Shown: piece by piece, positions 29,361 through 64,000 of the stretch
Position numbering within the stretch: the stretch's first letter is position 1
How the letters are laid out: every line of letters begins with the position of its first letter
Notes under the pieces: model-generated
Told to the model about the DNA's origin: nothing
The model's input: the letters and a program-made list of their open reading frames with translations, nothing else
The model's database searches: none
Position numbers and translations under genes: made by a program
Assembly: GCA_029259175.1 (NCBI GenBank)
Contig: JAPDJH010000005.1
Coordinates: 57,913 to 121,912 of the forward strand
Source of the DNA: Hadesarchaea archaeon
Lineage (GTDB): Archaea > Hadarchaeota > Hadarchaeia > Hadarchaeales > Hadarchaeaceae
Direction: 5' to 3'
Length of the DNA stretch: 64,000 nucleotides

Positions 29361-29439
29361 CGTTTTCTTCCCCTTTCTTATTCTCATGCAAGATTAAGAA
29401 TGACACTCAAGATTATTAAAAAAGGGCAGGGATGTAATA

Positions 29440-49172: not shown

Positions 49173-50480
49173 CTATTGACTGCTCGATAGAGAAATATAT
49201 TCATATGCCTCTATCGGAGATTCGAAACAATAACAAATTTTTTGATATTCTTTTCTGAATTCTGCTACCTCTTGGGCGATGCGCTCTTCGGGTTCACCAT
49301 CTACGACCACCCGAACTATGAACTCGGCAATTGTCTTCATTTCTCGTTCTTTCATTCCCAACCGAGTAACCTCGGAGGTGCCAATCCGGATCCCCCCAGG
49401 ATGTTTATAATTGCGTCCTTGTCGCGGATCCCATGGCAAAAGATTTCGATTGAGGATGATATTCGCATTTTCCAGTTTCTGCTCGATGGTGCCCCCGTCG
49501 CCGTACTTCGTTATGTCCGCTAAGAGAATATGGGATTGAGTGAAGCCCAGATCTGCGCACAGAACGTTTATTCCTTGGTCATAGAGGGCCTTTCCCAAAG
49601 CTTTAGCGTTCTTTATGATTTGAGATGCATATTCTTTACCAAACTTCATCATCTCTGCCAATGTGACGACCAAAGCAGCGACAGCGTGCAAATGGTGGTT
49701 GCTGACCACGCCGGGAAAAACAGCCCGGTTGATCCGATCTGCAAGCTCCTTAGTACACAGGATCATCCCATGCTGTGGTCCAGGAAGGGTTTTGTGAGTG
49801 CTGCAGGTCATGACCTCTGCCCCCTCGCGTAGAGGATCTTGGAAGTGCTTACCGGCTATAAGCCCGGCTACGTGAGCGGCATCATACATGACGTGGGCCC
49901 CCACATCCTTCGCTATTGGAGCGAGCTCTTTTACAGGATGCGGAAAGAGAAAAACGCTGCCACCGAAGGTTACGAGCTTTGGCTTCACTTGCTTGATTTT
50001 TTCCTCAGCAGCTTCAACGTCTATGTTCATCCGGGTTTCATCAAATGGGAAATATTCGATTTCTAAACCGTGGACGGCTCCAGCCGTGCCTCCGAATTTC
50101 TTTTTCCCCATGCTGATGTGTCCGCCCATCGCAATCGACAAACACATCATCGTGTCGCCCGGATCGGTTAGGGCGGTATACGTAGCGAGATTAGCAGTCA
50201 CGCCCGAAATGGGTTGGACGTTTGCATGCTCGGCTTCAAAAAGTTCTCTTGCCAGCTCCATTGCAAGCAGTTCCACTTGGTCGATATATTTGCATCCGGC
50301 ATATACCCGCTCTCCAGGCCACCCCTCAGCATATCGGTGTTGGAAATCGCAGATCAGCAACTCCCGAACGGCAGGGCTAGTCACATTCTCACTGGCTATG
50401 AGCGGAATAGAATTTCTGAACCACTCATGGTGTTGGTGAACTAGATCGAAAACACGCTTCATGTATTCTTCTGATTTCAC
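49173..50480 (-). CDS. glyA: Serine hydroxymethyltransferase
   Basis: LIASEN, RYAEG.PG.R.Y.G, STHKTLPGPQ. Confidence 0.96.
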   Translation of the reverse strand: MKSEEYMKRVFDLVHQHHEWFRNSIPLIASENVTSPAVRELLICDFQHRYAEGWPGERVYAGCKYIDQVELLAMELARELFEAEHANVQPISGVTANLATYTALTDPGDTMMCLSIAMGGHISMGKKKFGGTAGAVHGLEIEYFPFDETRMNIDVEAAEEKIKQVKPKLVTFGGSVFLFPHPVKELAPIAKDVGAHVMYDAAHVAGLIAGKHFQDPLREGAEVMTCSTHKTLPGPQHGMILCTKELADRINRAVFPGVVSNHHLHAVAALVVTLAEMMKFGKEYASQIIKNAKALGKALYDQGINVLCADLGFTQSHILLADITKYGDGGTIEQKLENANIILNRNLLPWDPRQGRNYKHPGGIRIGTSEVTRLGMKEREMKTIAEFIVRVVVDGEPEERIAQEVAEFRKEYQKICYCFESPIEAYEYISLSSSQ

Positions 50481-51697
50481 CTCACCAGCCCCTTCAACTC
50501 TCTCACATCTCCAGATATCACTTTTGGTGGCTCCGAGATACTTATTGCCTCCTCGGGGTCTTTAAGTGTATGGCCCGTTGCTACACACACCACCTTTTCA
50601 TCTTTGGAAACCTCGCCCGAGCGCAACAACTTTATCAGTCCAGCAACGGACGCTGCACTTGCCGGCTCCACCCCGATCCCTTCTAGTTGGGCGATTAGTT
50701 TCTGTGCGCGGACAATTTCTTTGTCCGATACAGCTTCAGCCATTCCTTTGGACCTTCTTATAGCATGCAGTGCCTTAATTCCGTTTACCGGATTGCCTAT
50801 CCGGATGGCCGTAGCAATTGTTTCAGGATTCTCCACGGGTTCGAAATAATCCCAGCCTCGCTTGAATGCACGGACAATTGGCATTGCGCCTTTTGCTTGG
50901 ATTCCGATCATAGAAGGAATTTTCTTTATCTTTCCTATTCGGTGAAACTCAGTAAACCCTTTATATATCGCCCATATATTAGCACAATTTCCCATTGGCA
51001 CGAACACTCTATCTGGACTTCCGTTTAGTTGCTCCACAATTTCATATCCTATGGTCTTCTGACCCTGAGGGCGGAACGGATTAATCGAGTTCAGCAAATA
51101 TATTCGTGGATTTTTCTCACAAACTTCTCTGACGAGCTCCAAGGCTCGATCGAAATTCCCTTTTATTGCGAATACCTGTGCACCGAAAATCAAGGTTTGA
51201 GTTAATTTGCCTAGAGCGACCTTTCCTTTCGGTAAAAACACATAGCATTTCAAGTTCGCTCTGGCAGCGTAAGCAGCAAGTGATGCCGAAGTGTTGCCAG
51301 TGGAAGCGCACGCGACAATTTTTGCTCCGAACTCCAGTGCCTTGGTCACGCCCAAGGTCATGCCACGATCCTTGAAGGATCCCGTTGGATTAGCTCCCTC
51401 GAACTTTATGAAAAGTTCTTCTATGCCCAAGTATCGTGCTAAACGGTCACATCGAATAAGAGGCGTTCCTCCCTCATCCAAGCTCACCACTTTGGAAAAA
51501 TCGAGAACTGGTAGAAGGGCGCGATAACGCCACACTCGGAGGGGTCCAGAGAGCGGATAGCACTTTAAATTTCGCTTTAACTCCTTGTCCGAAAACTCCA
51601 CTTCGAGCAGGCTTCCACACTTGGGGCAAGTGTAAGCAAGAGCTTGAATTGGCAATTTGTGTTTGCACTGGAAGCACTGGAGCTCCATCCGAACCAA
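50477..51697 (-). CDS. thrC: Threonine synthase
   Basis: NPTGSFKDRG, ASTGNTSAS, EPASA. Confidence 0.95.
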   Translation of the reverse strand: MVRMELQCFQCKHKLPIQALAYTCPKCGSLLEVEFSDKELKRNLKCYPLSGPLRVWRYRALLPVLDFSKVVSLDEGGTPLIRCDRLARYLGIEELFIKFEGANPTGSFKDRGMTLGVTKALEFGAKIVACASTGNTSASLAAYAARANLKCYVFLPKGKVALGKLTQTLIFGAQVFAIKGNFDRALELVREVCEKNPRIYLLNSINPFRPQGQKTIGYEIVEQLNGSPDRVFVPMGNCANIWAIYKGFTEFHRIGKIKKIPSMIGIQAKGAMPIVRAFKRGWDYFEPVENPETIATAIRIGNPVNGIKALHAIRRSKGMAEAVSDKEIVRAQKLIAQLEGIGVEPASAASVAGLIKLLRSGEVSKDEKVVCVATGHTLKDPEEAISISEPPKVISGDVRELKGLVR

Positions 51698-51730
51698 GAT
51701 GAATTCTTGTGGTCTTCTATAAACTTGTGC

Positions 51731-52738
51731 TCAAGCAATGGTTCGACACACGTCTATCAAGTCGCCTAGCAAAGAACTCGATGTTTCTCGAGGACCTGCT
51801 CCGAAACCGGTGATCGAGATCTCGCGTGCTAGGTCCAGCTTGAAGTTTACCGCGTTCAGAGTCCCTCCAACAGCAAGCGGGTGTCCTAGCGGAACTAGCT
51901 TTGGGGAAACCTCGACTGTCTGCCTCGTTGCCACGCCAACCAATTTAATGGTGTTGCCGGTTTCCTTGGCCAGTTTTATCGCTTGGGGGGTTATGCGAGC
52001 AATCCCCGTTCGTCTCACATCTTTGAACTTCACATCACGGCCAAGAATCGCATTGGAAAGAATAACAAGCTTAGCCGCAGTGTCTATACCCTCGATGTCC
52101 AAGGTGGGATCCTTCTCAGCGATGCCGAGCTCTTGTGCTTCGCGCAGTACTTGGTCAAAAGGCGCCCCTTCTTCGGCCATTCGAGAGAGGATGTAGTTGG
52201 TGGTGCCGTTGAGCACCCCTTGGATTTCCAGAACCTCGTTTCCAGCTAAAAGCTTTCTCGCAAGCTCGATTACCGGAATCGCGCCGCCCACGGAGGCTGA
52301 GTATCTGAACTCTACGCCCTGTTTTTTCGCCAGATGTTCCAATTCTCGAAAAGCCACAACCAATGGGCCCTTGTTGGATGTGATCACGTGCCGTCCAGCT
52401 TTCATGGCTTTTTTGATATGGGTAAGGCCGGGTTCACCGGTTTGGATGTTAGTGGGGGTGAGTTCAAAAACTATTTCGCATTCTACGCTCTCAATCGCTT
52501 CTACTGCAGAGATTCGCTTGTAATTGGGAAATGCCGAAACTTTGGCTTTCTGGTATGCCTTTTTCACTAACAGCCGCCAGTCCAGGCCCTTGTTATTCGT
52601 TGCCGCCCCGGAATCATCTACTACGCCCACTACGCGGGGCTTCAAACCAAATCGCCGATACAAAAACGATTTTTTTTCGGCTAAGCTTTCCACAAGTCCG
52701 CGCCCCAAGTTCCCGAAACCGATTATTAGGAGCCTCAT
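51731..52738 (-). CDS. hom: Homoserine dehydrogenase
   Basis: IGFGNLG, VITSNKGP, GVLNGTTNYIL, D..GID.AAKL.IL. Confidence 0.94.
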   Translation of the reverse strand: MRLLIIGFGNLGRGLVESLAEKKSFLYRRFGLKPRVVGVVDDSGAATNNKGLDWRLLVKKAYQKAKVSAFPNYKRISAVEAIESVECEIVFELTPTNIQTGEPGLTHIKKAMKAGRHVITSNKGPLVVAFRELEHLAKKQGVEFRYSASVGGAIPVIELARKLLAGNEVLEIQGVLNGTTNYILSRMAEEGAPFDQVLREAQELGIAEKDPTLDIEGIDTAAKLVILSNAILGRDVKFKDVRRTGIARITPQAIKLAKETGNTIKLVGVATRQTVEVSPKLVPLGHPLAVGGTLNAVNFKLDLAREISITGFGAGPRETSSSLLGDLIDVCRTIA

Positions 52739-53250
52739 GGGGGACCACCGACCGAGGTTATCAATAACAAGTCTTTTTGTTTACAGAACTCGGATAGCCA
52801 GCTAATGGCTTTTCGGGCATGTCGGTCACTATCGCTAAGAATGGTAAGTCTAGCAGCTGATTCTTTTCTGGGTCCGCCCATTGCTAGACTCAAATCCATC
52901 ACGCGCGTTCCGGTTATAGAGTTTATTCGATCCACCAAGGTGCGGATGTCGGCGTGAACTATATGTCCGAGTAAAATAACTGTCTGCTTTACTGTGTACA
53001 CCTCCTCACCTACTTGGGTGACCAAGACGTTGCGCGACTTCAGCGCGTTCAAAACACGTTTGAGACGGGATTGATCCTCGATCTCGAAGATCAGCGTTAC
53101 GGGGACTCGGCCAAGAGGTGTTTTGTGCTCCCGCTGGTGGATTATGCTCTGGATGTTGCCCCCGTAACGGGCGATTGGTTCTAAGGCTCTCAGCAATTGC
53201 CCCGGGATGTCCTCGAGCTCCATAACTAGCTTGACCAACACGCTGCTCAC
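52735..53250 (-). CDS. ACT-domain allosteric subunit associated with homoserine dehydrogenase
   Basis: ELEDIPGQLL..L.PI...GGNI.SIIH; GHIVH; coupled to hom. Confidence 0.85.
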   Translation of the reverse strand: MSSVLVKLVMELEDIPGQLLRALEPIARYGGNIQSIIHQREHKTPLGRVPVTLIFEIEDQSRLKRVLNALKSRNVLVTQVGEEVYTVKQTVILLGHIVHADIRTLVDRINSITGTRVMDLSLAMGGPRKESAARLTILSDSDRHARKAISWLSEFCKQKDLLLITSVGGPP

Positions 53251-53283
53251 CTCGGCTGAAACCCCTACTCTCTCTGAGGCCCT

Positions 53284-53424
53284 TTATTTAACGATGCCTA
53301 GTTCTGCCAGCTCCGAACGCTTGAGGGTGCAGTGTCCGTTTTCGTAGAAATCACACTCTGGACAGCACTCACCGCGTTTGTCACACTCCTCATAAAGATA
53401 ACAATTGGGGCAACACCTCGGCAT
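53284..53424 (-). CDS. Small Cys-rich protein (46 aa)
   Basis: MPRCCPNCYLYEECDKRGECCPECDFYENGHCTLKRSELAELGIVK; GGTGAG SD and TTTATA upstream. Confidence 0.7.
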   Translation of the reverse strand: MPRCCPNCYLYEECDKRGECCPECDFYENGHCTLKRSELAELGIVK

Positions 53425-53537
53425 TTCTCTCACCAAAACTCTCAGATTCGGATATGGGAATCGAAGATATAAAGCTAAGCCTTGAGCAAAAGCGAGAACC
53501 GAAAAGCTTAATCCGAAGAAAAAATATAAGATATGAT

Positions 53538-53792
53538 GCCGGGATGGGGTAGCTCCTAGAGATGGTTCCGGGGATCCCGCTGGCACTGCCCGAGGGTCCA
53601 AAAGACTCTGGCGGGCTTGTCAGAAGCGCCAAGGAACCGCTCGAAAACCTCGACCGGTAGGGAAGCGGGGCCGAAAGGTAACCGCCCAGCTCGGGAACGG
53701 GCTGGATCGGACGGTCTTGTGGGCTTTCCCATGTGGAAGGTCCGTGGAGGCTGTTCGGCCCTGCCGGAAGAGGCGGAGTTCCCTGTCCCGGC
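53538..53792 (+). ncRNA. Large GC-rich structured RNA of unknown class (~255 nt)
   Basis: Ends pair (GCCGGGAUGGGG..AGCUCC / GGAGUU-CCCUGUCCCGGC), nested helices with G-U pairs, GAAA and GGAA tetraloops, BRE/TATA-like CCGAAAAGCTTAAT upstream, T-run downstream. Confidence 0.75.
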
Positions 53793-53832
53793 GCTTTTTT
53801 TATGAACTCAAAACAGAGAAAGTGATGGAAGG

Positions 53833-53943
53833 ATGAGTCGGCGCAAAAAAAAGTCAGCCACCGAGCGTTTGAAAATGCTTCAAACCAGAATTTTGACCCC
53901 TTCGGATATCGGGAGGCGCCTGCGTCGTAAGCGTAAGAAATAG
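53833..53943 (+). CDS. Putative highly basic micro-protein (36 aa)
   Basis: MSRRKKKSATERLKMLQTRILTPSDIGRRLRRKRKK*; fills the gap between the RNA and the radical SAM gene. Confidence 0.45.
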   Translation: MSRRKKKSATERLKMLQTRILTPSDIGRRLRRKRKK

Positions 53944-53959
53944 AAACCCCACTTTAGAT

Positions 53960-54829
53960 TTGATGGTGCTCGAAGTCATTCGCAGATTCGATCCTTGGTC
54001 GGATTCTTGGTGCACCTGTCCAAAAAAGTACAGCCTGAACCCATATACGGGATGTGCACATCGCTGTGTCTACTGCTATATCACTTCTTACATTCCACGG
54101 GCATTTGAATGCCGGCCCAAACGGAATCTGCTGGAGAGGGTGGAGCGCGATATTAGAAAAATAGAGAAGGGCGTGCACGTAAGCATGTCGAACAGTTCGG
54201 ATCCATACCCGCCTCTCGAAGCGGAACTACGGCTCACCCGTGGGTGTTTAGAGCTTTTTCAGAAGAATGCGATCCCGGTACAAATAATCACCAAATCTGA
54301 CTTGGTGGTAAGAGACCTGGAGATTCTGAAGAATATGTGCTGTGTGGTAAGCTTCACGATCACTACTATGGATGAACGAGTCAGACGCAAACTTGAGCCC
54401 GGTGCACCTCCAAGTGAAAAGAGACTCCAAGCAATGCGTGAACTCGCCGAATTAGGGATTGCTGTCACTTTACGTTTAGATCCGGTGTTTCCGGTGTTGA
54501 ACGAGGGAGAAGTAGAAGAAATAGTGGAGGCTGCGGTTAGTGCGGGGGCGCTTCACGTGACCACATCTACTTTCAAGCCTCGGGCTGATGGGTGGAAAAG
54601 GTTTTCCCAAGTATTTCCACGTGTTGCAGAGCAAATCCGTGATCTTTATTTTGTCGAAGGGTTTAGAAGACACAATGCATTTTATTTGCCAGACAACGAG
54701 CGTCGAAGGCTGCTGGAAATGGTAGCTAAAGCCTGTCAACGGAATCGTGTTAGTGTAGCGTTCTGCCGTGAAGGAATAAAGTTCAAAGCGCCCAGTTGCG
54801 ATGGGAGCCACTTACTCGGAGACTTCTGA
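53960..54829 (+). CDS. Radical SAM protein, SplB/COG1533-like
   Basis: SLNPYTGCAHRCVYCY, SNSSDPYPP.E....TR, TKS.L..RD, LEP.APP...RL. Confidence 0.88.
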   Translation: MMVLEVIRRFDPWSDSWCTCPKKYSLNPYTGCAHRCVYCYITSYIPRAFECRPKRNLLERVERDIRKIEKGVHVSMSNSSDPYPPLEAELRLTRGCLELFQKNAIPVQIITKSDLVVRDLEILKNMCCVVSFTITTMDERVRRKLEPGAPPSEKRLQAMRELAELGIAVTLRLDPVFPVLNEGEVEEIVEAAVSAGALHVTTSTFKPRADGWKRFSQVFPRVAEQIRDLYFVEGFRRHNAFYLPDNERRRLLEMVAKACQRNRVSVAFCREGIKFKAPSCDGSHLLGDF

Positions 54830-55645
54830 AACGGTCGTTTGAACTGGGACTGTTGCTGGAGCGAATCTCGTTAAGGCGCGGGCCGGAGCCGGCGGTAGAG
54901 TCCACCTTGCTGGCCTAAGATGAGGTGGCGTGGCTTGAAGTATAGTAAACGAGTCCAACTCATCTGGATTCACAGGTACTGAAACGAGATTAGTGCGGGG
55001 GTTCAGGCTCATCGGCGCTAAAAGGAGGCCTCGCCTGACACGGAGCTCGGAGAGGAGGCAAATCCCCGCTTCACTTTCGAGCTGGAGGGAAGAAGGAGAG
55101 AGAGCATGAGTGCTCACATCGGAAGAAACGACGATGGTGCTCGCTATGTAATCAGTTAGCTTGTGATGGAGATCGTCGAGAGCCTGGAGATTTCCGAACC
55201 AGCACTCGTAAGGGATATAAGCCAGCGGTACTATTATATCGAATCCTAGCTGTCCATCGTACTTCACCCATGGCTCTATCCCTAGAGATCGGAGCGCCTG
55301 CACGATCAGCTTAGTGATGCACTTACTGATCTTCAATCCTCCTTTTTGTGGCCGCACCGTCCAGACCAAATCGCGACCCACCGGTTGTTCTGGTCCTCCG
55401 GCGTAGTACCAATAAGAGATATAAAAGGCCTGTGCACCTTGGGCGACATACTGACGGATGTTCTCTGGTGTTAATCTGATAGGTTTTCGTTCGTTGCCTA
55501 CACGTTCATAGCGTTGGATGGATTGAATCCGAGAGTTATAGATTGCACTCTCTCGCACTCCCATGCCCATTGTGCTATTAGCGGAAAGCAGGAGGATCGA
55601 TTGCACATCGCATCGCTCGTAGTACATCTTTTCCCTCCGGTCCAA
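54812..55645 (-). CDS. Archaeo-eukaryotic primase (PriS/LigD-Pol-like) homolog with degenerate catalytic motifs
   Basis: GRDLVW, VKYDGQLGFDIIVP (cf. K.SG.KG.H...P), LLAPMSLNPRTNLVSVPV...EL..F (cf. R.PYSL...GLVSVP). Confidence 0.7.
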   Translation of the reverse strand: MDRREKMYYERCDVQSILLLSANSTMGMGVRESAIYNSRIQSIQRYERVGNERKPIRLTPENIRQYVAQGAQAFYISYWYYAGGPEQPVGRDLVWTVRPQKGGLKISKCITKLIVQALRSLGIEPWVKYDGQLGFDIIVPLAYIPYECWFGNLQALDDLHHKLTDYIASTIVVSSDVSTHALSPSSLQLESEAGICLLSELRVRRGLLLAPMSLNPRTNLVSVPVNPDELDSFTILQATPPHLRPARWTLPPAPARALTRFAPATVPVQTTVSEVSE

Positions 55646-55705
55646 AACTCAAGAGGGATTTATAAACGGATTGAGAGGAGGGGTCGCCGAAAGTATTCTG
55701 CCCGA

Positions 55706-56131
55706 CCCCTTTGTTTCCACTGGAGATGATTTGATAATTAGCATTAGATTATTTATGATATAATAATAGATAAACTAGGTGCAGATATTGAGTGAACTAG
55801 ATTGGTTGGCTGGATTTCTCGATGCTTGTGGGTGTTTTACAAAAAATAAGTTAAAAATAGTCAGAAAAACCGAGAATAGGCTAAAAATTTATCGGTATCA
55901 AAACCCTGTTCTGTTTGTGGTAAATAATGATCCTTCTCCACTGGAAATAGTGAGGCGGATGATCGGGGGAGGGAAAATAATTCGAATAGGAGGTTCATAC
56001 CGATTAGAGGTCCGACGCAAGCAAGATGTTTTACGGGTTGTGGAACTGATAGATGGGCGGTTGAGATCCTTTAAAAAGAAAGAAGTCTTTGAGAAATGGA
56101 AATGGTTGGTTTTCCAGTGGAAACAAAGGAG
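55706..56131. other. Probable chromosomal replication origin (oriC)
   Basis: Inverted ORBs: CTCCAGTGGAAACAAAGGGG on minus (55706-55725) and TTCCAGTGGAAACAAAGGAG on plus (56112-56131); 17-bp perfect inverted repeat; very AT-rich 55727-55777. Confidence 0.8.
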
Positions 56132-56147
56132 TACCAGGATCCACTGA
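55779..56147 (+). CDS. Single-motif LAGLIDADG-fold protein, probably nuclease-dead
   Basis: WLAGFLDACGCF, then beta-strands, L..V...IGGGKI and YRLEV..KQDV..VVELI typical of the fold. Confidence 0.75.
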   Translation: MQILSELDWLAGFLDACGCFTKNKLKIVRKTENRLKIYRYQNPVLFVVNNDPSPLEIVRRMIGGGKIIRIGGSYRLEVRRKQDVLRVVELIDGRLRSFKKKEVFEKWKWLVFQWKQRSTRIH

Positions 56148-56148
56148 G

Positions 56149-56988
56149 TTAGCTCTCTTCTCCTTTGCTCAGTAACTCTGCTGTTTTTTGAAGCGCGCGC
56201 TCGATTTTCTCCGGCACTTTGCTGGGCTTGATTGAAAGGCGCGCCACCTTTGTAGCGATCTCCTGTATGGCCTTGCTGGCCACCGTTCGGGGGTAGAGGG
56301 CGAGCACTGGCATATTCTTTCTGAAGGCATCGCCCACCAATGGGTCTTCGGGGATGATTCCCAGCAGAGGGGCAACGGCGCTGAGCTTTTTGCCCCACTC
56401 CCTCACATCCACGCCTCGAGGGACTTTGTTGAGCACGGTTCCCACCGGGCGCACATCCATAAATTCCTTCAGCCCGCGTGCAGTGTTTATGGTGGCTTCC
56501 ACGGAGTCATCGTTGGGTTCGGCGACGAAGATCAGACCATCCGCCACGGCGGTGAGGATAAGGTGCTCAAAACTCATCGATGCAGGGGTGTCGATCACTA
56601 TGTACTCAAATCGCTTTCGCAACTTTTTTATGATCTGGTCAAACTTCCGCTTCGTTTCTTCAATGAAGGAAAGAAAGTCGCCCCTGATGACTGGGAGGAA
56701 GCGCCCCCCTGCAGGCAACACCGCCAGATTCGGATAGAGTGGCTCCCCCTCGGATTCCAGCTGGGAAAGGTAGATTGCTTCTTCCAATGGTTTTCCCTCC
56801 AAAACCTGCGCGAGGGTCACATCATAATCGGGACACATCTTCAGTTCGACTGAGCGGATGTGCATGTCTCCGTCCACCAGCAGAACCCAGTTCTTGGGAA
56901 AGAGCTTCGCCAGCGAGATGGCGAGTCCCATCGAGAAGGTACTCTTCCCAACGCCTCCCTTGGTTCCGACGACCGAGATTACGCTCAT
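56149..56988 (-). CDS. ParA/MinD-family ATPase
   Basis: Deviant Walker A KGGVGKS, LVDGD, IVIDTPA, VLNK, IPEDP.V..A. Confidence 0.92.
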   Translation of the reverse strand: MSVISVVGTKGGVGKSTFSMGLAISLAKLFPKNWVLLVDGDMHIRSVELKMCPDYDVTLAQVLEGKPLEEAIYLSQLESEGEPLYPNLAVLPAGGRFLPVIRGDFLSFIEETKRKFDQIIKKLRKRFEYIVIDTPASMSFEHLILTAVADGLIFVAEPNDDSVEATINTARGLKEFMDVRPVGTVLNKVPRGVDVREWGKKLSAVAPLLGIIPEDPLVGDAFRKNMPVLALYPRTVASKAIQEIATKVARLSIKPSKVPEKIERALQKTAELLSKGEES

Positions 56989-56992
56989 GGTC

Positions 56993-57439
56993 TCACTTCT
57001 TGCTTACCGATCCTCCAAAAATATTCCGAAGACTCTCTTTTAGCTCTTCAGGGCTCCTCACCACGGCGCGGTGCTGGGGAACAAAGGGTTTTTCCCTCAT
57101 GCGCAGGTGGGTGCGGATGTCAGCGGCTTTGTACACCATTTTTGCTCGCCCCTGCGTTCCCCTTAGGCTTTCGATCCCCACAAGCCCCGCCCGTACGAGA
57201 TAGTTGAGGTGATGTTTGATAAGGGTTGCCGGAAGCTTTCGCCCCATCACACGCCTGAGCCTCTCCGCCAGCTCGAACTGTCGCATGGGGCCCTTGTCGA
57301 GTTCGCGGTAAATCGCATAGCGGACGGGGTGGGCGATGGCTTTCGCGATCTCCAGTTGTCGTGCATCGTTGAGGATTTCCCACCCCTCTTCCGCCGGTTC
57401 GAAAACCAGCTTTATGCGTTTGGGTCTTTCAATCTTCAT
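56993..57439 (-). CDS. ArsR-like winged-helix DNA-binding protein
   Basis: AKAIAHPVR.AI...L.KGPM...ELA, IKHHL..L.RAGLV; 4-nt gap to the ParA/MinD gene. Confidence 0.82.
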   Translation of the reverse strand: MKIERPKRIKLVFEPAEEGWEILNDARQLEIAKAIAHPVRYAIYRELDKGPMRQFELAERLRRVMGRKLPATLIKHHLNYLVRAGLVGIESLRGTQGRAKMVYKAADIRTHLRMREKPFVPQHRAVVRSPEELKESLRNIFGGSVSKK

Positions 57440-57580
57440 TTGGTTTCCGATTTCTTTTCTGACTTAGCGGAATAAAAAATTTTTTTCATTCCAAGTTGAT
57501 GTTTCATCGAAAAGAGATCGAAAGCAGAACCGTTTTTTCATGCTCGCATTTCTGGGCGGTTGCTGGGGGTTTTCTTGGAG

Positions 57581-57884
57581 TCGTGAGCGGGTTCTCTTCG
57601 GAAACCTTGACCTCCGAAGTTGGCGACTCTGGGCCGCCTTTAGGGCCGGAACCCGCACGGCCCCGTTCCCGGAGCGCTGCTCCGGAAACCTCTTCCCCGG
57701 GCCTGCCGATCCGCGCAGTTCTGCTTCCCGCAGAGCGCCACGGACGGTGCGAGAAGCGCTCTCTGGAGTCACCGATCTGGGCATTCCGTAGAGCGGTTCC
57801 GCCTCTCCCTTTAAGCTTGTTTCGGGGAGAGGGATGGGCGAAAGTATTTGCGGGGTCAGGAGTTTCGAAGAGAACCTCGTGAGC
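57581..57884. repeat. ~290-bp GC-rich element with long terminal inverted repeats and 8-bp flanking direct repeats (MITE or structured RNA)
   Basis: TCGTGAGC-GGGTTCTCTTCGGAAACCTTGACCTC ... GGGGTCAGGAGTTTCGAAGAGAACC-TCGTGAGC. Confidence 0.6.
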
Positions 57885-57918
57885 AAAACTTTAAACACCA
57901 CCGGTCCGAGAGAGATTT

Positions 57919-58260
57919 GTGCACGACGCAGATTTGGTAAAGCAGCGGATTTTGCTTGAACTGAAAAGCCGTCCAGCATCCACCTTGTGGAAATTAGCGA
58001 ACACGCTCGGACTGCCGGTTTCAGAAATAGAAGAAACGCTGGTGGGGCTCGCTGATAGCGGACTGGTCAGAGTGACGGCATCTGGCTGGGAGCTCACCGC
58101 GCGGGGGCTGGAGTGGCTCGGAAGGTCCGCCGAGACCCCTTCCCCGAACAAACAGCCGAGCAAGGTAGGGCGCCCGAAGGAAGTAGTCAAGATCCCCCTG
58201 CCAAGCGATGTGGAGCGCTCCAAGAAAGTCCGCAAGCCCTTCAAGGAAGAGAAGGACTAG
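57919..58260 (+). CDS. Winged-helix protein with basic low-complexity tail
   Basis: RILLEL....STL..LA..LGL..SEI...L..L...GLV......WELT..G; TTTAAA ~24 nt upstream suggests a leaderless mRNA. Confidence 0.7.
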   Translation: MHDADLVKQRILLELKSRPASTLWKLANTLGLPVSEIEETLVGLADSGLVRVTASGWELTARGLEWLGRSAETPSPNKQPSKVGRPKEVVKIPLPSDVERSKKVRKPFKEEKD

Positions 58261-61200
58261 TCTCCTTGTGCTGGCTTGAGTAGTTTCTTCGCCCTACTTC
58301 TCTTCACTTTTGCTGGTTTTGTTTTTTCCTTCTTTCTCAGTTCCTCCACAGCTGGGGCGAGCAGATCTTTATAGGTTTGGATCACTGGTGGGAGCTCCTC
58401 TGATTTGCGTTTTCGGACCACTGGCCGTTTGAGCTCTACCTTGGCAGGCCGTCCTCTCCACCACCTTATGAATCTCACGGAACCGAAGATGCCTAGCGGC
58501 GCGATGAAGATAAGTGCGAGCAGGTATACTGGGAACGCTGGTGAAGGAGGCAGAACGGTCTCCGACTCGACCCCGCTGCCGAAGAATCCGAGGGCTGGAG
58601 CACTGACGGAGAAGTAAATATAGTTGGCATCTCTGTCAGTAAACGTGGCGGGGAGCGCTTCCCACTCTCCCTCTTCCCGCCAATAATAGACGTGGATGAG
58701 GTGTTCTTTGCCGGGGTCGGCCAGCCAGCTGGGCAACCTCACTTGCAGGGTAAGGTCTTGGATCAAGGCCGGATCTAGATTGGTGAGAAGCTGGAAGTAC
58801 TGGTAGGGGCGCACGGGGATCGGAGGCATATTCTCTGGTAGATTTTCAATAGTTTCGATCCGCATCCACCCCCCGGGCACGTTTTCGGAGGGCACGAAAG
58901 AGACGGCAACGAGATCGGTTCCTAGTTCGGAGAAGTCGAGCTCTACGTTTTCTCCAGCGGGGGCGGTCGGGATTTCCACGGTCCCGACTCGGGCCCGGAG
59001 TTCTATCTCATCCATGGCGGTCGAGACGTTCCCCGCGCGATCCCTCACCCGAGCATAGACGTGCTTCAATCCTTCTGGTAGTGAAAGGGTGTAGGTGCGC
59101 TGGACGTCGAAGGGCTCCCATTCGGTCCACTGGACGAGATCCTCGCTGAATTGCATCTCAGCTATTTCTGAAAGTTCGTCGACGGCGGCGAGGGACAGAG
59201 TCACTTCGCGGGAGAGGGTAAAGGGTGAGTTCTCGTTGATCGTGAAGTTTAGAATTCGGGGTGGCGTGGTGTCGATTCCGCAGCGGGTGTCGGCGGTTTC
59301 GGGTGGGGCCTCGGTGTTGTTGCCGTCGTCCGTGGCGATCGAGTAGAACTCGTAGTGCCCGTCGTTTTCGGGGGCGATGAAGGACCAGCTCCAGGGAGCT
59401 TCGGTGTCGGTCGCGAAACTCTTCCACTCGCTCCAGGGGTCGTTCTCATTCGCGCGGTAGCGGTAGTAGAGGGCAACGCTGGTGACCGTTCCGTCCGCGT
59501 CGCTGGCCTGCGCAGTGATGACCACGGGAAGCTGCGAGTGCCAATAAGGCTCGATGTTTTCAACGAAGGACACGGGCGGAACCGGTGCTGGCCCGGGAGC
59601 GGAGCCGCCGGCCGCTTCTTGAATAGTCACTGTGTGAGCATAGATTTTCTCATTCCCCGCCGCGTCTCTGGCCTTGATTTGAATGGTGTGGTCGCCGGTT
59701 GAGAGAGCTCCTGTGTTAAAGCTGAAGCTCACCTCCGGAGCCGGAAGGGCAGGACTAATGTCGACGATGGGCTCCCACGCACCACCATCCACACTGTAGC
59801 GTAACCACGTGATATCGGTTCCCGTCCCGTTGACCTTTCCGCTGTAGTCCAAGGAGGTCTCGGTTGTTGGTGAGGAGGGGACACTCATGTCGAAGAACTG
59901 GGGAGGATCGGTGTCGATCTGGAACTTCCAAACCTCGGACCACCGGAGCTGATTTCCGGAGCGATATCCTCCCACACGCCAGTACCACACCTCGTCCTCG
60001 AGCGTGGCGGTGTAGGAGTTCTCCCGGATGTTGTCGTTGTCGATGGTGGGGGAGGAGAAGTCTGGGTCGTTGTCCACTTGGAGCCAGAAGTTGTCTACTG
60101 GGCACAGGTTGTCCCAGCGAAGCGTGACGGTTGGCTCATTGGTGATGGTGTTGTTGTCGGGAGAGAACAGGATTGGGGCTACGCTGAGGGTGCTTGATTG
60201 CCAGCTCTCAGCGACGCGCCAGAGCGGAGCGGTTTTGCCCGATCCTGCCCACTCAGCGACAGTTCTCCACACCCCTTTTGTTGCTCGTAGTGCAGAGTCC
60301 CATCTTTCCACCCAGCCCCACCGTGAAACCGAGGAGAGGAGAAGCGCCTTCCACTCCTCGACGACGCTCCACACCCCCGGCGCTTCTGCTTCTCCACTCC
60401 ACTCTTCAACAGCTTTCCATTCAGCCGTTATGGGATTTGTTTTGGCTGACCAACTTTCGATGAGTGTCCACTGGGCCATCTTTACCCCGATTTCTCCAGT
60501 CCAGCATTCAGCGGCCCTCCACTTCCCAGCACTGGAATGAAGAGCACCGGTCCAAGATTCAACATTCTTCCACTCTGCCGGGGTCTTCATTGTCCCCGTC
60601 CACTGCTCAGCGCTTGTCCACAGGATTGTTTTTGGTTTCACCCCTCCTTGCCAGGATTCGGTGGCTTTCCATCCAGCCGTTTCCGAGCGCACGGTTGTAG
60701 TCCAAGACTCGTGCGCGCACCACTCGGCAAGCGTTTCAAGCGCTCCGCTCCACCCTTCCGCGAGTTCCCAAGCCACCTCTTTGCTCCTTGGATTAGCAGT
60801 CCATCCTTCAGCTGCATTCCACTGAGTTGTTTTCGATATGGTTCCGCTTACCCATGACTCGACACTGAGCCACGCGGCTGTTCGCTTGATCTCGGCCGTC
60901 CACAGCTCAACCGAGACCCAAACTCCGCGTCCTTGGATCGAGCAGCTCCACTGTTCGAGCTCCCGCCACGTCGCGATGATGATCACCCACGTGTTCTCCG
61001 ACCAGTTCTCAACCCCTCCCGTGCCAAGCGCTGCGACACGCCACCAATACACGCCGGGGGGCAGAGCGTTTTCGATCTCTATGAGGTTTTCGTTGGCCGG
61101 GATGTTCGCGTTGTCGTAGAGATTGTCTCCGTCCGCGAAGTTCGGATCGTTATCGATGACGAGTCGATATCCGGACTCTCCGGTCACATCGGTCCAGCGG

Positions 61201-64000
61201 AAAGCGGGCGTAGGGTCGGCCGTGTAGGTGAGGTTTTCGGGGCTCAGGAGTTGCGGCTTGCCGGGTGTGACGGGAGGTGGAGTGTATGTGATCTCCACCC
61301 AGTAGAGCACGGGGGTGAGCGTGTTGTCTTCGCTTGCGAAATCCACCCGGTACTGGATGTAGCGGTTGTCCCCCAGGCCGATTGTGCTCCCGCTGGGGTC
61401 GGTGTAGGGTCCCTCCCAATCGGTCCAGGTGGTTCCGTCGGCGCTTGCTCGCGCATAGATTTCGATCGAGGTGGAGTAGACGTTCTCCTCCATCACCACG
61501 CACGCGTCGATGTGGGCGACCGTCTGGGTCGAATCAGTGTTGTCCCATGCTTCCAGCTTCACGTAGAGGTTGTCCCCGTCTAAGTAGCTCGGGTAGACCG
61601 TGTTCTCGATCCACCCAGTATTCGCCTCGCCCACGGGGAGGTTGTCGATGAACAGCCACCGCGAGTTCGCGTTGTCCCACACCCATATCCCGATGTTCTC
61701 CGAGTCTCCGTCGGAGTATCCGTAGATTCTGAGCTTGAGGCTCTCCCAGTCGGTGGTGATGTTCTCCACCGTGTACTGCCAGCGCAGGCCGTAGTTCTCG
61801 GGCGTGTGGTTTTCGTAGAAAATCAGGAAGTCCTCCTGCAGGCGGTGGGCGGTGCTCTGGACCGAGGTCCGCAGGCGCACGCGCACGTTGTCCCCCCCGC
61901 CCCCGAGATTGCTCAGGTAGTTGTCCGGGTCGAGAGTTATCGTGTTCTCCCACGTCACCTCGGTGCTCCCCACCGAGCCGGAGTTCAGGAGCACCCACTG
62001 GTCCGAGCTGAAGTCGTAGATTTCGAGCTGGTACTCGGCGGTGTTTTCGGACGCGAAGCTCACGTGCACCGTGAGGTTGTCCAGGGTCCCTTGGTAGGTG
62101 ATCGGTTCTGACTCGTGCACGACCTCCAGGATGTACCCGGTCGAGGTGTAGTTCTCCTGAAAGAGGAGGTAGTCGATCTGCACCCGGTGGTCCGAACTCT
62201 CCCCGGTGGTGTAGAGGCGCACTCGGATGTTCTCCCGCCCCGGAGTGTCCGAGATGAAGTTCTCGATGTTCTCGCCGAAAGTCCCGTCGTAGATGACATT
62301 CTCCCACGTCACCTCGGTCGTCCCCACCTCTCCCGAGTCCAGCGTCCGCCACTCCTGGGCATCCCAGTTCCAGATCTGCCACGTGTAGGTCACGGTGGCG
62401 GTCGACTTGAAGTTGATGACCAAGCGCAGGTTGTCGATGTCGGCCTCGGGCGTGCTCACCTGGCTCGAATCGAAGCGGAGGTCGAGGGAATAACTCAACG
62501 TAGCGGCTTCAGAGCGTTTGAAGGCGAGATCAGCGAACCCCGTTGAAAGTGAATTCACATTGGTACTGAAATTGTCGACGTCCAGCGTGAACCCGCTTCC
62601 GTCCCATCGAATCGAACCCACTCTGGCAGGCGTACTCCCTCCGTCGGTAGTGTTGATGCTCACCCCCAAGATCTCGTCCGGGTCGTTCGGATTCTGGCGT
62701 AGGGTTATCCAGTGGTAGTCGTCCGTCGTGCCCAGTCCGGTGTCCGTCCCCCAGCCGGAGGAGGGGGTCCACACGTTGTAGGTGGGTTCGCTGGCGTCGT
62801 CGCCGTCAAACAGGATGATGCACTTGCTCTCTCCTGCTTCCCATGCGATGTCGAAAACCTGGTGGGTGTAGGTCAGAGCTGCTCCTTCGTGTTCGTGCTC
62901 TCCCACAAAGGTATCTGAACTTCCGTCCCAGACCACCGAGTACAAATCTCCCCCGTCATCAAGCATGGTTACCATGATGTTGTCCGAGTGGGGGTCTCCC
63001 TTGGCGACCACAAAGCGAATGTCACCGCCGTCGACCGTGGAATCGTAGGTTACCTCGGGGCCCCACGAGCTGCCGTCCCACTTTCTGGCCTTGAGCACGC
63101 CTGCTGTGGGGGTGGCCCAGAAGAAAACGGCCTCTCCCGATTGGTGCTCGTAGGCCACGGCGACCGGTTGTTGCCCGTCTCCGACATAATTTCCATCAGA
63201 GGAGAGCACGAGCTCATTTCCCCAGCTCGACCCGTCCCAAATAAGGGCGGTAACATTATCCGCTTCATCTATGGTTATCATCGCGATCTCGTCTGAATCG
63301 GGTTTGCTTGCGAGCTTGACCACCACCACATCGTCCGTGTTAGCGGTCAGGTCGATTCCCTGAGGAGCGCTCCACTGGTTTCCGTCCCATACACTGTACA
63401 TCAGCTCGTAGGTTCCGGCTCCACCGAACTGGTCTGTGGACCAGACCAAGAGAGCATCACCGCTGACATTTTCGTATGCGAGGTCGAAGCTACGGTCGTC
63501 ATCCACTACCGAGCCCCCGCTCCCGAGTTCGTGATTTTCAATCCAAGAGTTTCCATCCCACACGTAGACATCTAGATATCCGTCCTCTCCCAGTGTGACA
63601 ATTATCCGTTCGTTGGCCCTAGTGGATACCGGACAGTATTCGACCCTCGTCCACTGAATGTAAGCGCCGGTGTCCGCGAGTTCGTTTTCGGTTCCCCAAG
63701 CAGCCCCATCCCAGTCACGGAACTTCGGATAATTCTCGTTGGAGACATCCGAGCGGTATCCGACCGTTCCCTCAGGCGCGCTCCCAGCCGCCCCAGTCTG
63801 TTCTGCATCCACTTCATAGTAGTTGGTATCGTCATCAACATCCATGGAGTCCGTCGAGGTTCCGCTGACCTCAGTCCCGTTCTCCACCAGCGTGTAGTTT
63901 TCGTAATCGGTCTCGCTCTGGTAGAGAACAGCGCTTTCAGCGTCGACCTGGTAGTTCTCACCGTCGTCGGCGTCGAGGTTGTCGGTCGAGTTCAGAGCCG
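58257..64000 (-). CDS. Giant multidomain cell-surface protein (N-terminus beyond the window)
   Basis: Frame stays open from 63887 to the edge; acidic beta-rich repeats (WDG..W), Ig/FnIII-like modules (DTDPP, DAAGN, DRAGN), PGF-pre-PGF-like domain, C-terminal TM and basic tail. Confidence 0.88.
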   Translation of the reverse strand, partial: ALNSTDNLDADDGENYQVDAESAVLYQSETDYENYTLVENGTEVSGTSTDSMDVDDDTNYYEVDAEQTGAAGSAPEGTVGYRSDVSNENYPKFRDWDGAAWGTENELADTGAYIQWTRVEYCPVSTRANERIIVTLGEDGYLDVYVWDGNSWIENHELGSGGSVVDDDRSFDLAYENVSGDALLVWSTDQFGGAGTYELMYSVWDGNQWSAPQGIDLTANTDDVVVVKLASKPDSDEIAMITIDEADNVTALIWDGSSWGNELVLSSDGNYVGDGQQPVAVAYEHQSGEAVFFWATPTAGVLKARKWDGSSWGPEVTYDSTVDGGDIRFVVAKGDPHSDNIMVTMLDDGGDLYSVVWDGSSDTFVGEHEHEGAALTYTHQVFDIAWEAGESKCIILFDGDDASEPTYNVWTPSSGWGTDTGLGTTDDYHWITLRQNPNDPDEILGVSINTTDGGSTPARVGSIRWDGSGFTLDVDNFSTNVNSLSTGFADLAFKRSEAATLSYSLDLRFDSSQVSTPEADIDNLRLVINFKSTATVTYTWQIWNWDAQEWRTLDSGEVGTTEVTWENVIYDGTFGENIENFISDTPGRENIRVRLYTTGESSDHRVQIDYLLFQENYTSTGYILEVVHESEPITYQGTLDNLTVHVSFASENTAEYQLEIYDFSSDQWVLLNSGSVGSTEVTWENTITLDPDNYLSNLGGGGDNVRVRLRTSVQSTAHRLQEDFLIFYENHTPENYGLRWQYTVENITTDWESLKLRIYGYSDGDSENIGIWVWDNANSRWLFIDNLPVGEANTGWIENTVYPSYLDGDNLYVKLEAWDNTDSTQTVAHIDACVVMEENVYSTSIEIYARASADGTTWTDWEGPYTDPSGSTIGLGDNRYIQYRVDFASEDNTLTPVLYWVEITYTPPPVTPGKPQLLSPENLTYTADPTPAFRWTDVTGESGYRLVIDNDPNFADGDNLYDNANIPANENLIEIENALPPGVYWWRVAALGTGGVENWSENTWVIIIATWRELEQWSCSIQGRGVWVSVELWTAEIKRTAAWLSVESWVSGTISKTTQWNAAEGWTANPRSKEVAWELAEGWSGALETLAEWCAHESWTTTVRSETAGWKATESWQGGVKPKTILWTSAEQWTGTMKTPAEWKNVESWTGALHSSAGKWRAAECWTGEIGVKMAQWTLIESWSAKTNPITAEWKAVEEWSGEAEAPGVWSVVEEWKALLLSSVSRWGWVERWDSALRATKGVWRTVAEWAGSGKTAPLWRVAESWQSSTLSVAPILFSPDNNTITNEPTVTLRWDNLCPVDNFWLQVDNDPDFSSPTIDNDNIRENSYTATLEDEVWYWRVGGYRSGNQLRWSEVWKFQIDTDPPQFFDMSVPSSPTTETSLDYSGKVNGTGTDITWLRYSVDGGAWEPIVDISPALPAPEVSFSFNTGALSTGDHTIQIKARDAAGNEKIYAHTVTIQEAAGGSAPGPAPVPPVSFVENIEPYWHSQLPVVITAQASDADGTVTSVALYYRYRANENDPWSEWKSFATDTEAPWSWSFIAPENDGHYEFYSIATDDGNNTEAPPETADTRCGIDTTPPRILNFTINENSPFTLSREVTLSLAAVDELSEIAEMQFSEDLVQWTEWEPFDVQRTYTLSLPEGLKHVYARVRDRAGNVSTAMDEIELRARVGTVEIPTAPAGENVELDFSELGTDLVAVSFVPSENVPGGWMRIETIENLPENMPPIPVRPYQYFQLLTNLDPALIQDLTLQVRLPSWLADPGKEHLIHVYYWREEGEWEALPATFTDRDANYIYFSVSAPALGFFGSGVESETVLPPSPAFPVYLLALIFIAPLGIFGSVRFIRWWRGRPAKVELKRPVVRKRKSEELPPVIQTYKDLLAPAVEELRKKEKTKPAKVKRSRAKKLLKPAQGD

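Follow-up and report, generated by a model that had tools for sequence, protein, structure and literature searches.

An inverted pair of origin recognition boxes enclosing an inactivated LAGLIDADG gene: a candidate replication origin in Hadarchaeota

Chromosomal replication origins of the Orc1/Cdc6 type in Euryarchaeota comprise two long inverted origin recognition boxes (ORBs) around an AT-rich stretch, with cdc6 and the genes for the DNA polymerase D small subunit DP1, MCM, and GINS close by and a second cluster of ORB-type repeats near cdc6. The adjacency of orc1/cdc6 to the origin is usual but not obligatory, since in two Thermococcus species 349 and 453 kb separate oriC from cdc6 according to a report on this group (PMC4640148); the same report mentions only “small computer-predicted orphan genes” as overlapping Thermococcales origins. 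Here, we analyzed a 64,000-nt stretch of DNA from a member of the Hadarchaeota (Hadarchaeales), hereafter called the window, which corresponds to C4:57913-121912 of the source assembly (1.3 Mb, 23 contigs); homologues of one of its proteins are labelled Hadarchaeota, Hadarchaeales, or Hadesarchaea in their source records. Within the window, an inverted ORB pair encloses an AT-rich stretch and a gene for a small LAGLIDADG-fold protein. The locus shares the features listed above with euryarchaeal origins and differs from them in two respects: its distance from cdc6 is 9.4 kb, a span that includes five unrelated metabolic genes, one gene for a radical SAM protein, and one resembling archaeo-eukaryotic primases (AEPs), and a protein-coding gene under selection fills the inter-ORB space, with one ORB inside its coding sequence. 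To our knowledge, Hadarchaeota has no cultured representative and no mapped origin. In the open-access literature searched, neither a LAGLIDADG gene at an archaeal origin nor an origin of Hadarchaeota was found in print, and the sole paper pairing “Hadarchaeota” with “origin of replication” concerns Odinarchaeum. What is novel at this locus is a candidate ORB origin whose two boxes enclose a LAGLIDADG gene that is inactivated yet under selection. Our explanation of the locus combines an origin, a domesticated LAGLIDADG protein, an AEP paralogue serving repair, and a later inserted island; taken as a whole, we consider it somewhat better than an even proposition, and its parts are graded separately below.

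The ORB pair is marked by the 12-mer TCCAGTGGAAAC, exact copies of which occur at 55713-55724 on the minus strand and 56113-56124 on the plus strand and nowhere else on the 23 contigs of the genome, where five more sites match with one mismatch. When one mismatch was allowed, the window contained three matches against 0.39 expected, a number reached by 2 of 100 shuffled sequences. Each copy forms the core of one arm of a 20-nt inverted repeat, ACCCCTTTGTTTCCACTGGA / TCCAGTGGAAACAAAGGAGT, with 95% complementarity between the arms. We refer to them as ORB1 (55705-55724, reading TCCAGTGGAAACAAAGGGGT on the minus strand) and ORB2 (56113-56132, plus strand, TCCAGTGGAAACAAAGGAGT); both bear an AAAGG(G/A)GT tail after TCCAGTGGAAAC. 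The core agrees with the Pyrococcus mini-ORB TTCCAGTGGAACT and with the conserved TTCC/GAA motifs given in a study of that genus (PMC1904270), and the ORB core TTCCAGTGGAA followed by a G-rich tail is common to the present locus, Pyrococcus abyssi oriC, and Sulfolobus oriC1. The 54 nt next to ORB1 (55725-55778) have a GC content of 18.5% and form a candidate duplex-unwinding element; the 60-nt stretch starting at 55729 has the second lowest GC content of the whole window. This AT-rich part abuts ORB1 only, and the remainder of the inter-ORB interval is the LAGLIDADG gene.

For comparison, 20 related loci were fetched, and the window proteins and ORBs were mapped onto each; relatives are denoted by family (f1, f2, f4), genus (g1-g19), locus (L0xx), and genome (G0xx). 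The arrangement of ORB1, AT-rich spacer, and inverted ORB2 was present in 14 of the 14 related loci that bear the LAGLIDADG gene. In these loci, ORB1 (0-2 mismatches) precedes the aligned LAGLIDADG start by 36-67 nt, ORB2 (0-3 mismatches) retains the G-rich tail, the two boxes are 355-410 nt apart from start to start, and the GC content of the spacer is 0.09-0.32. Loci with no LAGLIDADG gene (L035-L037 and L040) keep ORBs at the syntenic position, and those of L040 form an inverted pair 157 nt apart. The genome-unique inverted cores, the AT-rich stretch, and the layout in 14 of 14 loci bear out the probable ORB-type oriC proposed in a preliminary description of this DNA, and gene orientations in the window diverge from the point where the ORB pair lies. 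In three of the loci with no LAGLIDADG gene, L035-L037 (genera g8 and g3), an unrelated open reading frame (ORF) of 187 aa with no Pfam family (e.g., L035:9118-9678) was observed between the AEP-like gene and the ORB, and in L035 the direct repeat GATACTATCGTAACAGTA brackets both this ORF and the ORB.

Cumulative GC skew, which the preliminary description had proposed as a means of mapping the origin, pointed exactly to the ORB in one relative. On contig C1 of G010 (1,030,738 nt, a near-complete genome), the cumulative G-C minimum is at position 790,950, and the single long ORB is at 791,087, only 137 nt away. On the source contig C4, the minimum (111,355) is 2.3 kb from ORB1, a rough agreement on a contig that ends 8 kb beyond. 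Several observations weigh against the origin assignment. In G025:C2, the minimum at 365,941 is 39 kb from the ORB pair at 326,715, and in G003:C2 the skew has no usable pattern, with its minimum at 243,825 and the ORBs at 87.9-88.3 kb. Skew therefore backs an origin in one genome and is weak, noisy, or discordant in the others; moreover, the skew switch coincides with the switch in gene orientation, which alone could create it. Our confidence that the inverted ORB pair and its AT-rich stretch constitute the chromosomal replication origin is nevertheless high and derives mostly from the ORB evidence. Under this assignment, Orc1/Cdc6, the product of a gene 9.4 kb away, would occupy both boxes and load MCM at the point where the AT-rich DNA opens. 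The locus thus supplies a concrete and conserved origin candidate for the phylum Hadarchaeota.

The gene between the boxes (55779-56147, plus strand) encodes a 122-aa protein with a single LAGLIDADG motif. It matched Pfam PF00961 at a borderline level (E-value 1e-4; 23.4 bits against a cut-off of 23.1). A profile built from 14 family members matched I-AabMI (2.5e-10) and the archaeal intron endonuclease I-Vdi141I (1.9e-9) in the PDB. The AlphaFold2 model (pLDDT 91) had I-TnaI as its top Foldseek match (E-value 5.6e-7, TM score 0.74), followed by other homodimeric enzymes. The protein shares the α-β-β-α-β-β-α fold around a single motif and the length of approximately 120 aa with I-TnaI, I-Vdi141I, I-CreI, I-CvuI, and I-MsoI, and, as predicted by modelling, the use of the LAGLIDADG helix as a dimer interface. 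When two copies were modelled together, the score was 0.74 against 0.00 for the best control, with 100% contact agreement between runs and a partner pLDDT of at least 87; of proteins solved as one-chain pairs, 20 of 30 reached the mark set for this score, as did 1 of the 23 with single-chain structures. The modelled interface comprises residues 4-17, the LAGLIDADG helix, and since such homodimers have already been solved, the pass may mirror likeness to them rather than binding. These models suggest that the protein probably still folds and forms an I-CreI-type homodimer.

In contrast to the homodimeric homing endonucleases, the catalytic acid is replaced in 11 of the 14 members. The window motif reads LAGFLDACG, with C at the catalytic position, and the family motif is G-F-(I/L)-(E/D)-x-X-G. 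The catalytic column, which faces E of I-Vdi141I in the alignment, contains K in nine members, E in three, A in one, and C in the window protein, and the residue differs even inside genera (E in L030 and K in L031; K in L027 and E in L028). The loss of the catalytic acid and the position inside the origin had both been stated in the preliminary description and agree with these data. Also unlike homing endonucleases, the gene is in neither an intron nor an intein, has one fixed chromosomal copy per genome, and is inherited vertically across two families of one order. A single copy was found in 26 of the 66 genomes of the phylum searched, in genera g1, g2, g9, g10, g11, g13, and g18, with weak matches in g19; genome searches found none in g8 (0 of 14 genomes) or g15 (0 of 7). 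There was no sign of mobility, as there was a single match per genome and the gene lay between the ORBs in 14 of 14 fetched loci. In the profile search, seven representatives formed a tight clade (E-value ≤6.5e-29), followed by a gap to generic LAGLIDADG proteins at 6e-17. A word-index search for homologues returned only the window protein's own cluster (1 protein among 6 candidates), and NCBIfam and PADLOC contained no family for this protein or for the AEP-like protein discussed below.

The LAGLIDADG gene is under purifying selection, judging from ratios of nonsynonymous to synonymous substitution rates (dN/dS) of 0.15, 0.17, 0.21, and 0.22 in four of eight pairs, the synonymous rate being saturated in the other four. 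An ORF that arises by chance over conserved origin DNA was rejected on the basis of the fold, the profile matches, and dN/dS. Domesticated LAGLIDADG proteins, such as intron maturases and plant and organellar splicing factors, have lost their catalytic residues while keeping the fold and nucleic acid binding. Those proteins act on their own intron RNA, whereas the present gene has no intron and stands in the context of a DNA origin. Judged by its sequence and its selection pattern, the 122-aa protein is most likely a domesticated homing endonuclease that is no longer selected for cleavage.

We consider it slightly less probable than an even chance that this protein is a sequence-specific DNA-binding accessory acting on a putative target at or near the origin. 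The AT-rich stretch (55725-55778) is necessarily also the promoter region of the LAGLIDADG gene, and ORB2 lies within the 3' end of the gene, where it encodes FQWKQRS. With a promoter in the putative unwinding element and last codons that are ORB2, expression of the gene and occupancy of the origin are physically coupled. A more specific scenario, which we put forward tentatively and hold to be doubtful, is that in two families of Hadarchaeales an origin-invading homing endonuclease became an origin-specific accessory, whose non-cutting homodimer binds in or beside the ORB pair. Such a scheme would link three things by mutual regulation: occupancy by the initiator, melting of the origin, and the amount of the accessory protein. 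If true, archaeal origin factors would gain a new class, and the locus would be the first origin to harbour a functional gene in the space separating its initiator boxes. It would also mean a lineage-specific addition to the Orc1/Cdc6-MCM scheme and a clean case of a selfish nuclease turned into a part of chromosome maintenance. Both of the latter ideas are open to testing with the 122-aa protein and 450 bp of DNA.

Three points weigh against an accessory function. Sister genera g8 and g15 have ORBs with no LAGLIDADG gene, indicating that the gene is dispensable for origin function. Because ORB2 encodes the C-terminal peptide (L/F)(Q/E)WKxR, protein and DNA constraints are entangled there, and conservation of the C-terminus is confounded with that of ORB2. 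Three of the 14 members keep an acidic residue and might still cut. The same gene could alternatively be a selfish or decaying endonuclease in a safe harbour, a tolerated passenger with no host function that persists since its loss would upset ORB2 or the distance between the boxes. Mobility is typical of LAGLIDADG genes, the catalytic residue is gone in 11 of 14 members, ORB2 overlaps the last codons, and many sister genera with ORB-bearing origins have no such gene. In addition, near-palindromic sites are the targets of homodimeric LAGLIDADG enzymes, and an inverted ORB pair would be such a site. However, a decaying element is expected to gather stops and frameshifts, whereas 22 of the 26 genome matches have no internal stop and in two of the other four (G015 and G022) the match overruns the gene's own stop. 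The dN/dS of 0.15-0.22 over the whole protein and the vertical conservation of a single copy per genome across the order, at 37-43% identity, also argue against a passenger, and we judge this alternative unlikely. Directly after the origin LAGLIDADG gene in the two f2 loci examined (L042:10278-11858 and L044), there is a gene for a eukaryote-type topoisomerase IB (Topoisom_I 2.2e-62).

On the other side of ORB1, the minus strand contains an ORF (54812-55645) that the preliminary description regarded as an AEP homologue with no catalytic residues. Its probable start is the ATG at 55627, which opens the conserved MYY and gives a protein of 271 aa (54812-55627). Single-sequence searches of the PDB with the whole protein and with residues 85-215 found no match, and the family profile gave only borderline matches to PriS (E-value 3.5e-3 to 5.6e-3 over 30 residues). 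The AlphaFold2 model (pLDDT 90.6) matched 45 PDB chains at E-value ≤1e-3, and all of those listed are AEPs: LigD polymerase domain (PolDom), PrimPolC, the Methanocella nonhomologous end-joining (NHEJ) polymerase, CAPP, and PriS, with E-values from 2.6e-8 to 1e-3. When the family was compared by hhalign with the genome's own intact LigD_Prim-Pol-type AEP on C5 (motifs DFD, SGSRGYQ, and LLD), the probability was 94% and the E-value was 1.1e-7. The fold is shared with LigD PolDom, PrimPolC, and the archaeal NHEJ polymerase (Foldseek TM score 0.55-0.63), and the block ...RRGLLLAPMSLNP.TGLVSVP... matches the nucleotide-binding strand of PriS and PolDom. A canonical PriS is encoded elsewhere in the genome (C5:85088-85672). 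We also observed a third AEP of 357 aa (C5:1432-2505, minus strand) with an N-terminal extension, a LigD_Prim-Pol match of 1.6e-21, and an intact DFD, which is not the canonical PriS.

At the positions of motifs I, II, and III, the AEP-like family shows GRDLVWT(I/V)R, G..GFD, and LLSELRVRRGLLLAPMSLNP, respectively. For motif I, hhalign pairs D92 and V94 with the D.D of the intact paralogue at low column confidence, and an ungapped alternative pairs T96 and R98. In either register at least one Asp is missing, and the DxD is therefore not intact as far as the alignments indicate. For motif II, the invariant G131..G134-F135-D136 lies opposite SGSRGYQ of the intact paralogue and ends in Asp. In LigD and PriS, this motif (sGxGxH) ends in His. 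For motif III, hhalign sets S199, with a gap, opposite the Asp, beside an invariant E200. The fold and the broken DxD agree with the earlier view of an AEP homologue lacking its catalytic residues. The ambiguous register of motif I and the invariant E200 near motif III, however, leave room for residual metal binding, which weighs against a wholly non-catalytic protein. The 130 homologues found are all unnamed or annotated as hypothetical, and all those with a named source come from Hadarchaeota-type metagenome-assembled genomes; in the searches made, the family is limited to Hadarchaeota, unlike LigD PolDom and PrimPolC.

The distribution and neighbourhood of the AEP-like gene differ from those of the LAGLIDADG gene. 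Strong matches occurred in 25 of the 41 relatives used for the AEP-like and ParA counts, and none was found in six f2 genomes, all of which have the LAGLIDADG gene. In 13 of 18 AEP-like loci, the gene immediately downstream and in the same orientation encodes Ogg (8-oxoguanine glycosylase; PF22175 8.1e-67). The gap is 13-49 nt in 10 of these 13, among them all four f4 loci, in which the AEP-like gene has no ORB beside it. Related loci also frequently have a radical SAM gene of the spore-photoproduct-lyase-like kind in the neighbourhood. A DNA repair gene neighbourhood is a further likeness to LigD PolDom; in contrast to LigD PolDom, the DxD is broken, motif II ends in Asp where LigD has His, and no ligase, Ku, or phosphoesterase partner was seen. 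That the protein is a non-catalytic LigD-PolDom-like paralogue serving DNA repair together with Ogg is, in our view, an evenly balanced proposition; against it, the source genome encodes Ogg elsewhere (C9) and not beside the AEP-like gene. If it holds, an inactivated PolDom-like AEP paired with Ogg would be a new candidate repair factor.

Alternatively, the AEP-like protein could work at the origin or in the replisome, for instance by recognising melted origin DNA or recruiting PriSL as a non-catalytic, primase-like subunit. No more than 1 kb separates the gene from ORB1 in 14 of the 18 AEP-like loci, namely the window and all 13 loci of f1, and the AEP fold is known to bind template DNA and nucleotides. 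There is also precedent in inactivated polymerase paralogues with structural roles in archaeal replication, as described in one report (PMC2527604). Among the open-access papers listed by a literature search, none concerned an inactivated AEP at an origin, judging by title or abstract. Against a replication role, the six f2 genomes have the same LAGLIDADG origin with no strong AEP-like match. In L040, the sole f4 locus where ORBs were found, the AEP-like gene is 9.5 kb from the ORB pair, and the remaining three f4 loci yielded no ORB close to the gene. Among its conserved neighbours, Ogg is the tightest. The adjacency to Ogg, the lack of strong matches in f2, and the distance in L040 make a repair role more likely than origin control, and we regard the replication-factor alternative as improbable.

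The preliminary description had placed the origin about 9 kb from cdc6 rather than beside it. The distance of 9.4 kb from ORB1 to the nearest cdc6 (45047-46336, minus strand; Cdc6_C 5e-31) was confirmed, and no orc1/cdc6 gene is adjacent to the ORB pair. The contrast with an origin beside cdc6 needs qualification, because the cdc6 operon has Cdc6-type boxes of its own. This cdc6 is the third gene of an operon on the minus strand that encodes MCM (46817-48820; Pfam MCM 1.2e-90), GINS (46320-46823; Sld5 1.2e-3), Cdc6, and DP1 (43501-45060; DNA_pol_E_B 1.4e-16). The spacer between MCM and the serine hydroxymethyltransferase (SHMT) gene (48821-49172; 352 nt) is AT-rich (36.9% GC), and at its far end (49140-49172) there are three tandem mini-ORB-like units, CAGTGGAA(A), i.e., CAGTGGA(A). 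The array is kept in the MCM-SHMT spacers of seven of the seven relatives aligned. In Pyrococcus, a second Cdc6-bound ORB cluster exists besides oriC, as described in PMC1904270, and by analogy the array upstream of MCM is predicted to be probably a second Cdc6-binding cluster and probably, like its Pyrococcus counterpart, autoregulatory. The second cdc6 paralogue of the window (28167-29387, minus strand; 406 aa; Cdc6_C 5.6e-20) is 26 kb from ORB1, and no ORB with up to one mismatch occurs near it.

True initiation might instead occur in the AT-rich mini-ORB region upstream of MCM (48821-49172), or both sites might fire; if the MCM-upstream site alone fired, the ORB pair would be a Cdc6-dependent regulator of the divergent AEP-like and LAGLIDADG promoters. 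No 60-nt stretch of the window is lower in GC than the one that starts at 48872 in this spacer, an observation that counts against the ORB pair as the origin, and the three conserved tandem CAGTGGAA(A) units lie here as well. It heads the operon that contains cdc6, the usual archaeal arrangement, and the putative Methanothermobacter origin is, as mentioned in PMC1904270, marked by tandem arrays of 13-bp mini-ORBs. However, the long ORBs with a G-string, inverted around an AT-rich stretch, are at 55.7 kb and not upstream of MCM, and Pyrococcus Cdc6 is described as binding long G-string ORBs far better than single mini-ORBs (PMC1904270). Furthermore, in G010:C1 only 137 nt separate the skew minimum from the long ORB, compared with 9.5 kb for the mini-ORB array (800,453). 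Initiation upstream of MCM thus appears decidedly unlikely, and we retain the ORB pair at 55.7 kb as the origin candidate.

Archaeal partition systems such as SegAB and AspA-ParB-ParA of pNOB8 combine a ParA with a small DNA-binding protein. A pair of this kind adjoins the LAGLIDADG gene, and the preliminary description had assigned the AEP-like, LAGLIDADG, ParA, and winged helix-turn-helix (wHTH) genes to one system for origin control or segregation. Its coordinates and gene types for the region 54812-58260 are correct, including the wHTH and ParA operon that ends 1 nt from the LAGLIDADG stop and the second wHTH gene. The ParA/MinD-superfamily ATPase (56149-56988, minus strand) has the deviant Walker A motif GTKGGVGKST, matches Pfam AAA_31, CbiA, and ParA, and reached 108 bits against the NCBIfam model minD_arch, for which the cut-off is 201.75. 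The upstream gene of the operon encodes an ArsR-type wHTH protein (56993-57439, minus strand; HTH_20 8.1e-7) and is 4 nt upstream of ParA. The second wHTH ORF (57919-58260, plus strand; 113 aa) is small and weak (HTH_20 2.7e-4, under the cut-off), and the PADLOC matches of the two wHTH proteins (Csa3 and MkoB) were weak and were taken as generic wHTH likeness. As in SegAB and AspA-ParB-ParA, an ATPase with a deviant Walker A motif is encoded right after a small wHTH protein. Unlike in those systems, the genes here are multi-copy, patchy, tied to giant surface-protein genes, and not conserved at the origin, and neither a ParB nor centromere-like repeats were seen, the only adjoining repeat being a miniature inverted-repeat transposable element (MITE)-like sequence.

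Synteny, another check suggested in the preliminary description, separated these genes: the core of AEP-like gene, ORBs, and LAGLIDADG gene is syntenic in related genera, whereas the wHTH-ParA operon was found at the origin position in 0 of the 20 related loci. The next conserved gene there is that for tyrosyl-tRNA synthetase (TyrRS; 17 of 20 loci), followed by one for a 274-aa MinD (14 of 20) that is 26-30% identical to the window ParA; the TyrRS, MinD, and Macro genes of the source genome are on another contig (C6:72403-68826). The ParA family is patchy, with up to five copies in 16 of 41 genomes, and was on the origin contig in 0 of 11 relatives in which both could be located. The best match (61%) is in another family, and two of three same-genus genomes have no match at the threshold. 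Among eight ParA loci sampled, a wHTH homologue is directly upstream in six, and homologues of the giant protein encoded at the right end of the window (58257-64000, minus strand, reaching the contig end; secreted or surface protein) are present in six. The genome's own paralogous wHTH-ParA loci are similar in setting: that on C8 (41845-47000) borders a reading frame open for at least 1,200 aa, and that on C1 (106000-113250) has large ORFs nearby.

The GC content rises to 0.576 to the right of 56149 from 0.49 to the left. The last 160 nt of C4 match C6:74722-74563 at 99.4% identity, and C4:120204-120404 matches the end of C6 at 96.5%, in each case colinearly and in reverse orientation. A junction of C4 and C6 inside the giant gene, whose middle would be variable, is therefore probable and would leave an island of approximately 10 kb between ORB2 and TyrRS, and the N-terminal part of the giant gene probably continues on C6. 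Contigs of 29.5 kb from runs X1, X3, and X4 span the junction at 56148; these runs come from one study and include two samples other than the source, whereas X1 may be the source sample itself. Two points count against the island: the join of C4 and C6 depends on two short matches with a diverged stretch between them, and no contig of run X5, the one run from a different study, bridges 56145-56273, a gap from which we draw no conclusion. We nonetheless think it quite probable that the wHTH-ParA operon, the MITE-like repeat, the second wHTH gene, and the giant gene form an island of approximately 10 kb, inserted between ORB2 and TyrRS in this lineage only, with ParA as its first gene. The island would be one copy of a cassette of giant surface protein, wHTH, and ParA.

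That the AEP-like, LAGLIDADG, wHTH-ParA, and second wHTH genes form one system for origin binding, firing control, or segregation is very improbable: all of them are within 3.5 kb of the ORB pair in the source genome, the ParA with its small wHTH partner resembles an archaeal partition pair, and 14 of the 20 related loci encode a different MinD-type ATPase approximately 1.5-3 kb away from the origin, indicating that an ATPase of this superfamily near the origin is common in the order, but the ParA family has the patchy, multi-copy distribution given above with no case on the origin contig, its conserved neighbours encode giant surface proteins, the GC-shifted island around it breaks the LAGLIDADG-TyrRS synteny, the AEP-like and LAGLIDADG genes differ in phyletic pattern, and the second wHTH had no BLASTP match at 1e-3 in eight related cassettes. 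The parts thus differ in their distribution, the single-system claim is not upheld, and the neighbouring ParA operon is most likely a later insertion outside the origin system. The locus warns against inferring function from proximity to an origin, as an entire 20-kb block is syntenic and one apparent member is a recent insertion.

The order DP1-Cdc6-GINS-MCM-SHMT-threonine synthase-homoserine dehydrogenase-ACT-...-AEP-like-ORB-LAGLIDADG is conserved across Hadarchaeales. The whole 20-kb neighbourhood, including SHMT, threonine synthase, homoserine dehydrogenase, and TyrRS, is equally syntenic, and synteny by itself is therefore no proof of function. The metabolic genes between the MCM operon and the origin candidate include, on the minus strand, those for SHMT (49173-50480), threonine synthase (50477-51697), homoserine dehydrogenase (51731-52738), and an ACT-domain protein (52735-53250). 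These are followed on the plus strand by the radical SAM gene (53960-54829; Radical_SAM 3.8e-20, DUF1848, SPL 2.8e-3), which is convergent with the AEP-like gene and overlaps it by 18 nt. Its product belongs to the group of PA0069, Rv2578c, and spore-photoproduct-lyase-like proteins and matched NCBIfam rSAM_PA0069 at 7.3e-42, under the family cut-off. Searches with Rfam (E-value ≤0.1, 48000-59000) and a tRNA scan (40000-64000) returned no matches.

Within the island, the MITE-like repeat (57589-57876; 288 nt) lies between the two wHTH genes and has 23-nt terminal inverted repeats and the flanking direct repeat TCGTGAGC. Elsewhere in the genome there are four near full-length copies (86.5-90% identity, 286-290 nt; one on C2, two on C3, and one on C4) and fragments on C6, and in four public runs the repeat showed approximately 5-fold contig depth and contig breaks (Logan contigs). 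At the giant gene, the C4 end (window approximately 62200-64000) and C6:74563-76103 contain near-identical colinear pieces with a diverged middle, suggesting strain-level hypervariability that broke the assembly. The cassette of giant surface protein, ArsR-type wHTH, and ParA recurs in several copies per genome and is patchy across Hadarchaeales (L100-L107); it is newly noted here. Finally, a 20-nt motif, GAGGG.T.G.CGAAAGTATT, is shared by 55678-55697 and 57829-57848, approximately 80-100 nt upstream of the LAGLIDADG and second wHTH starts, and precedes the AEP-like gene in L035 as well; the motif may serve as a promoter or operator.

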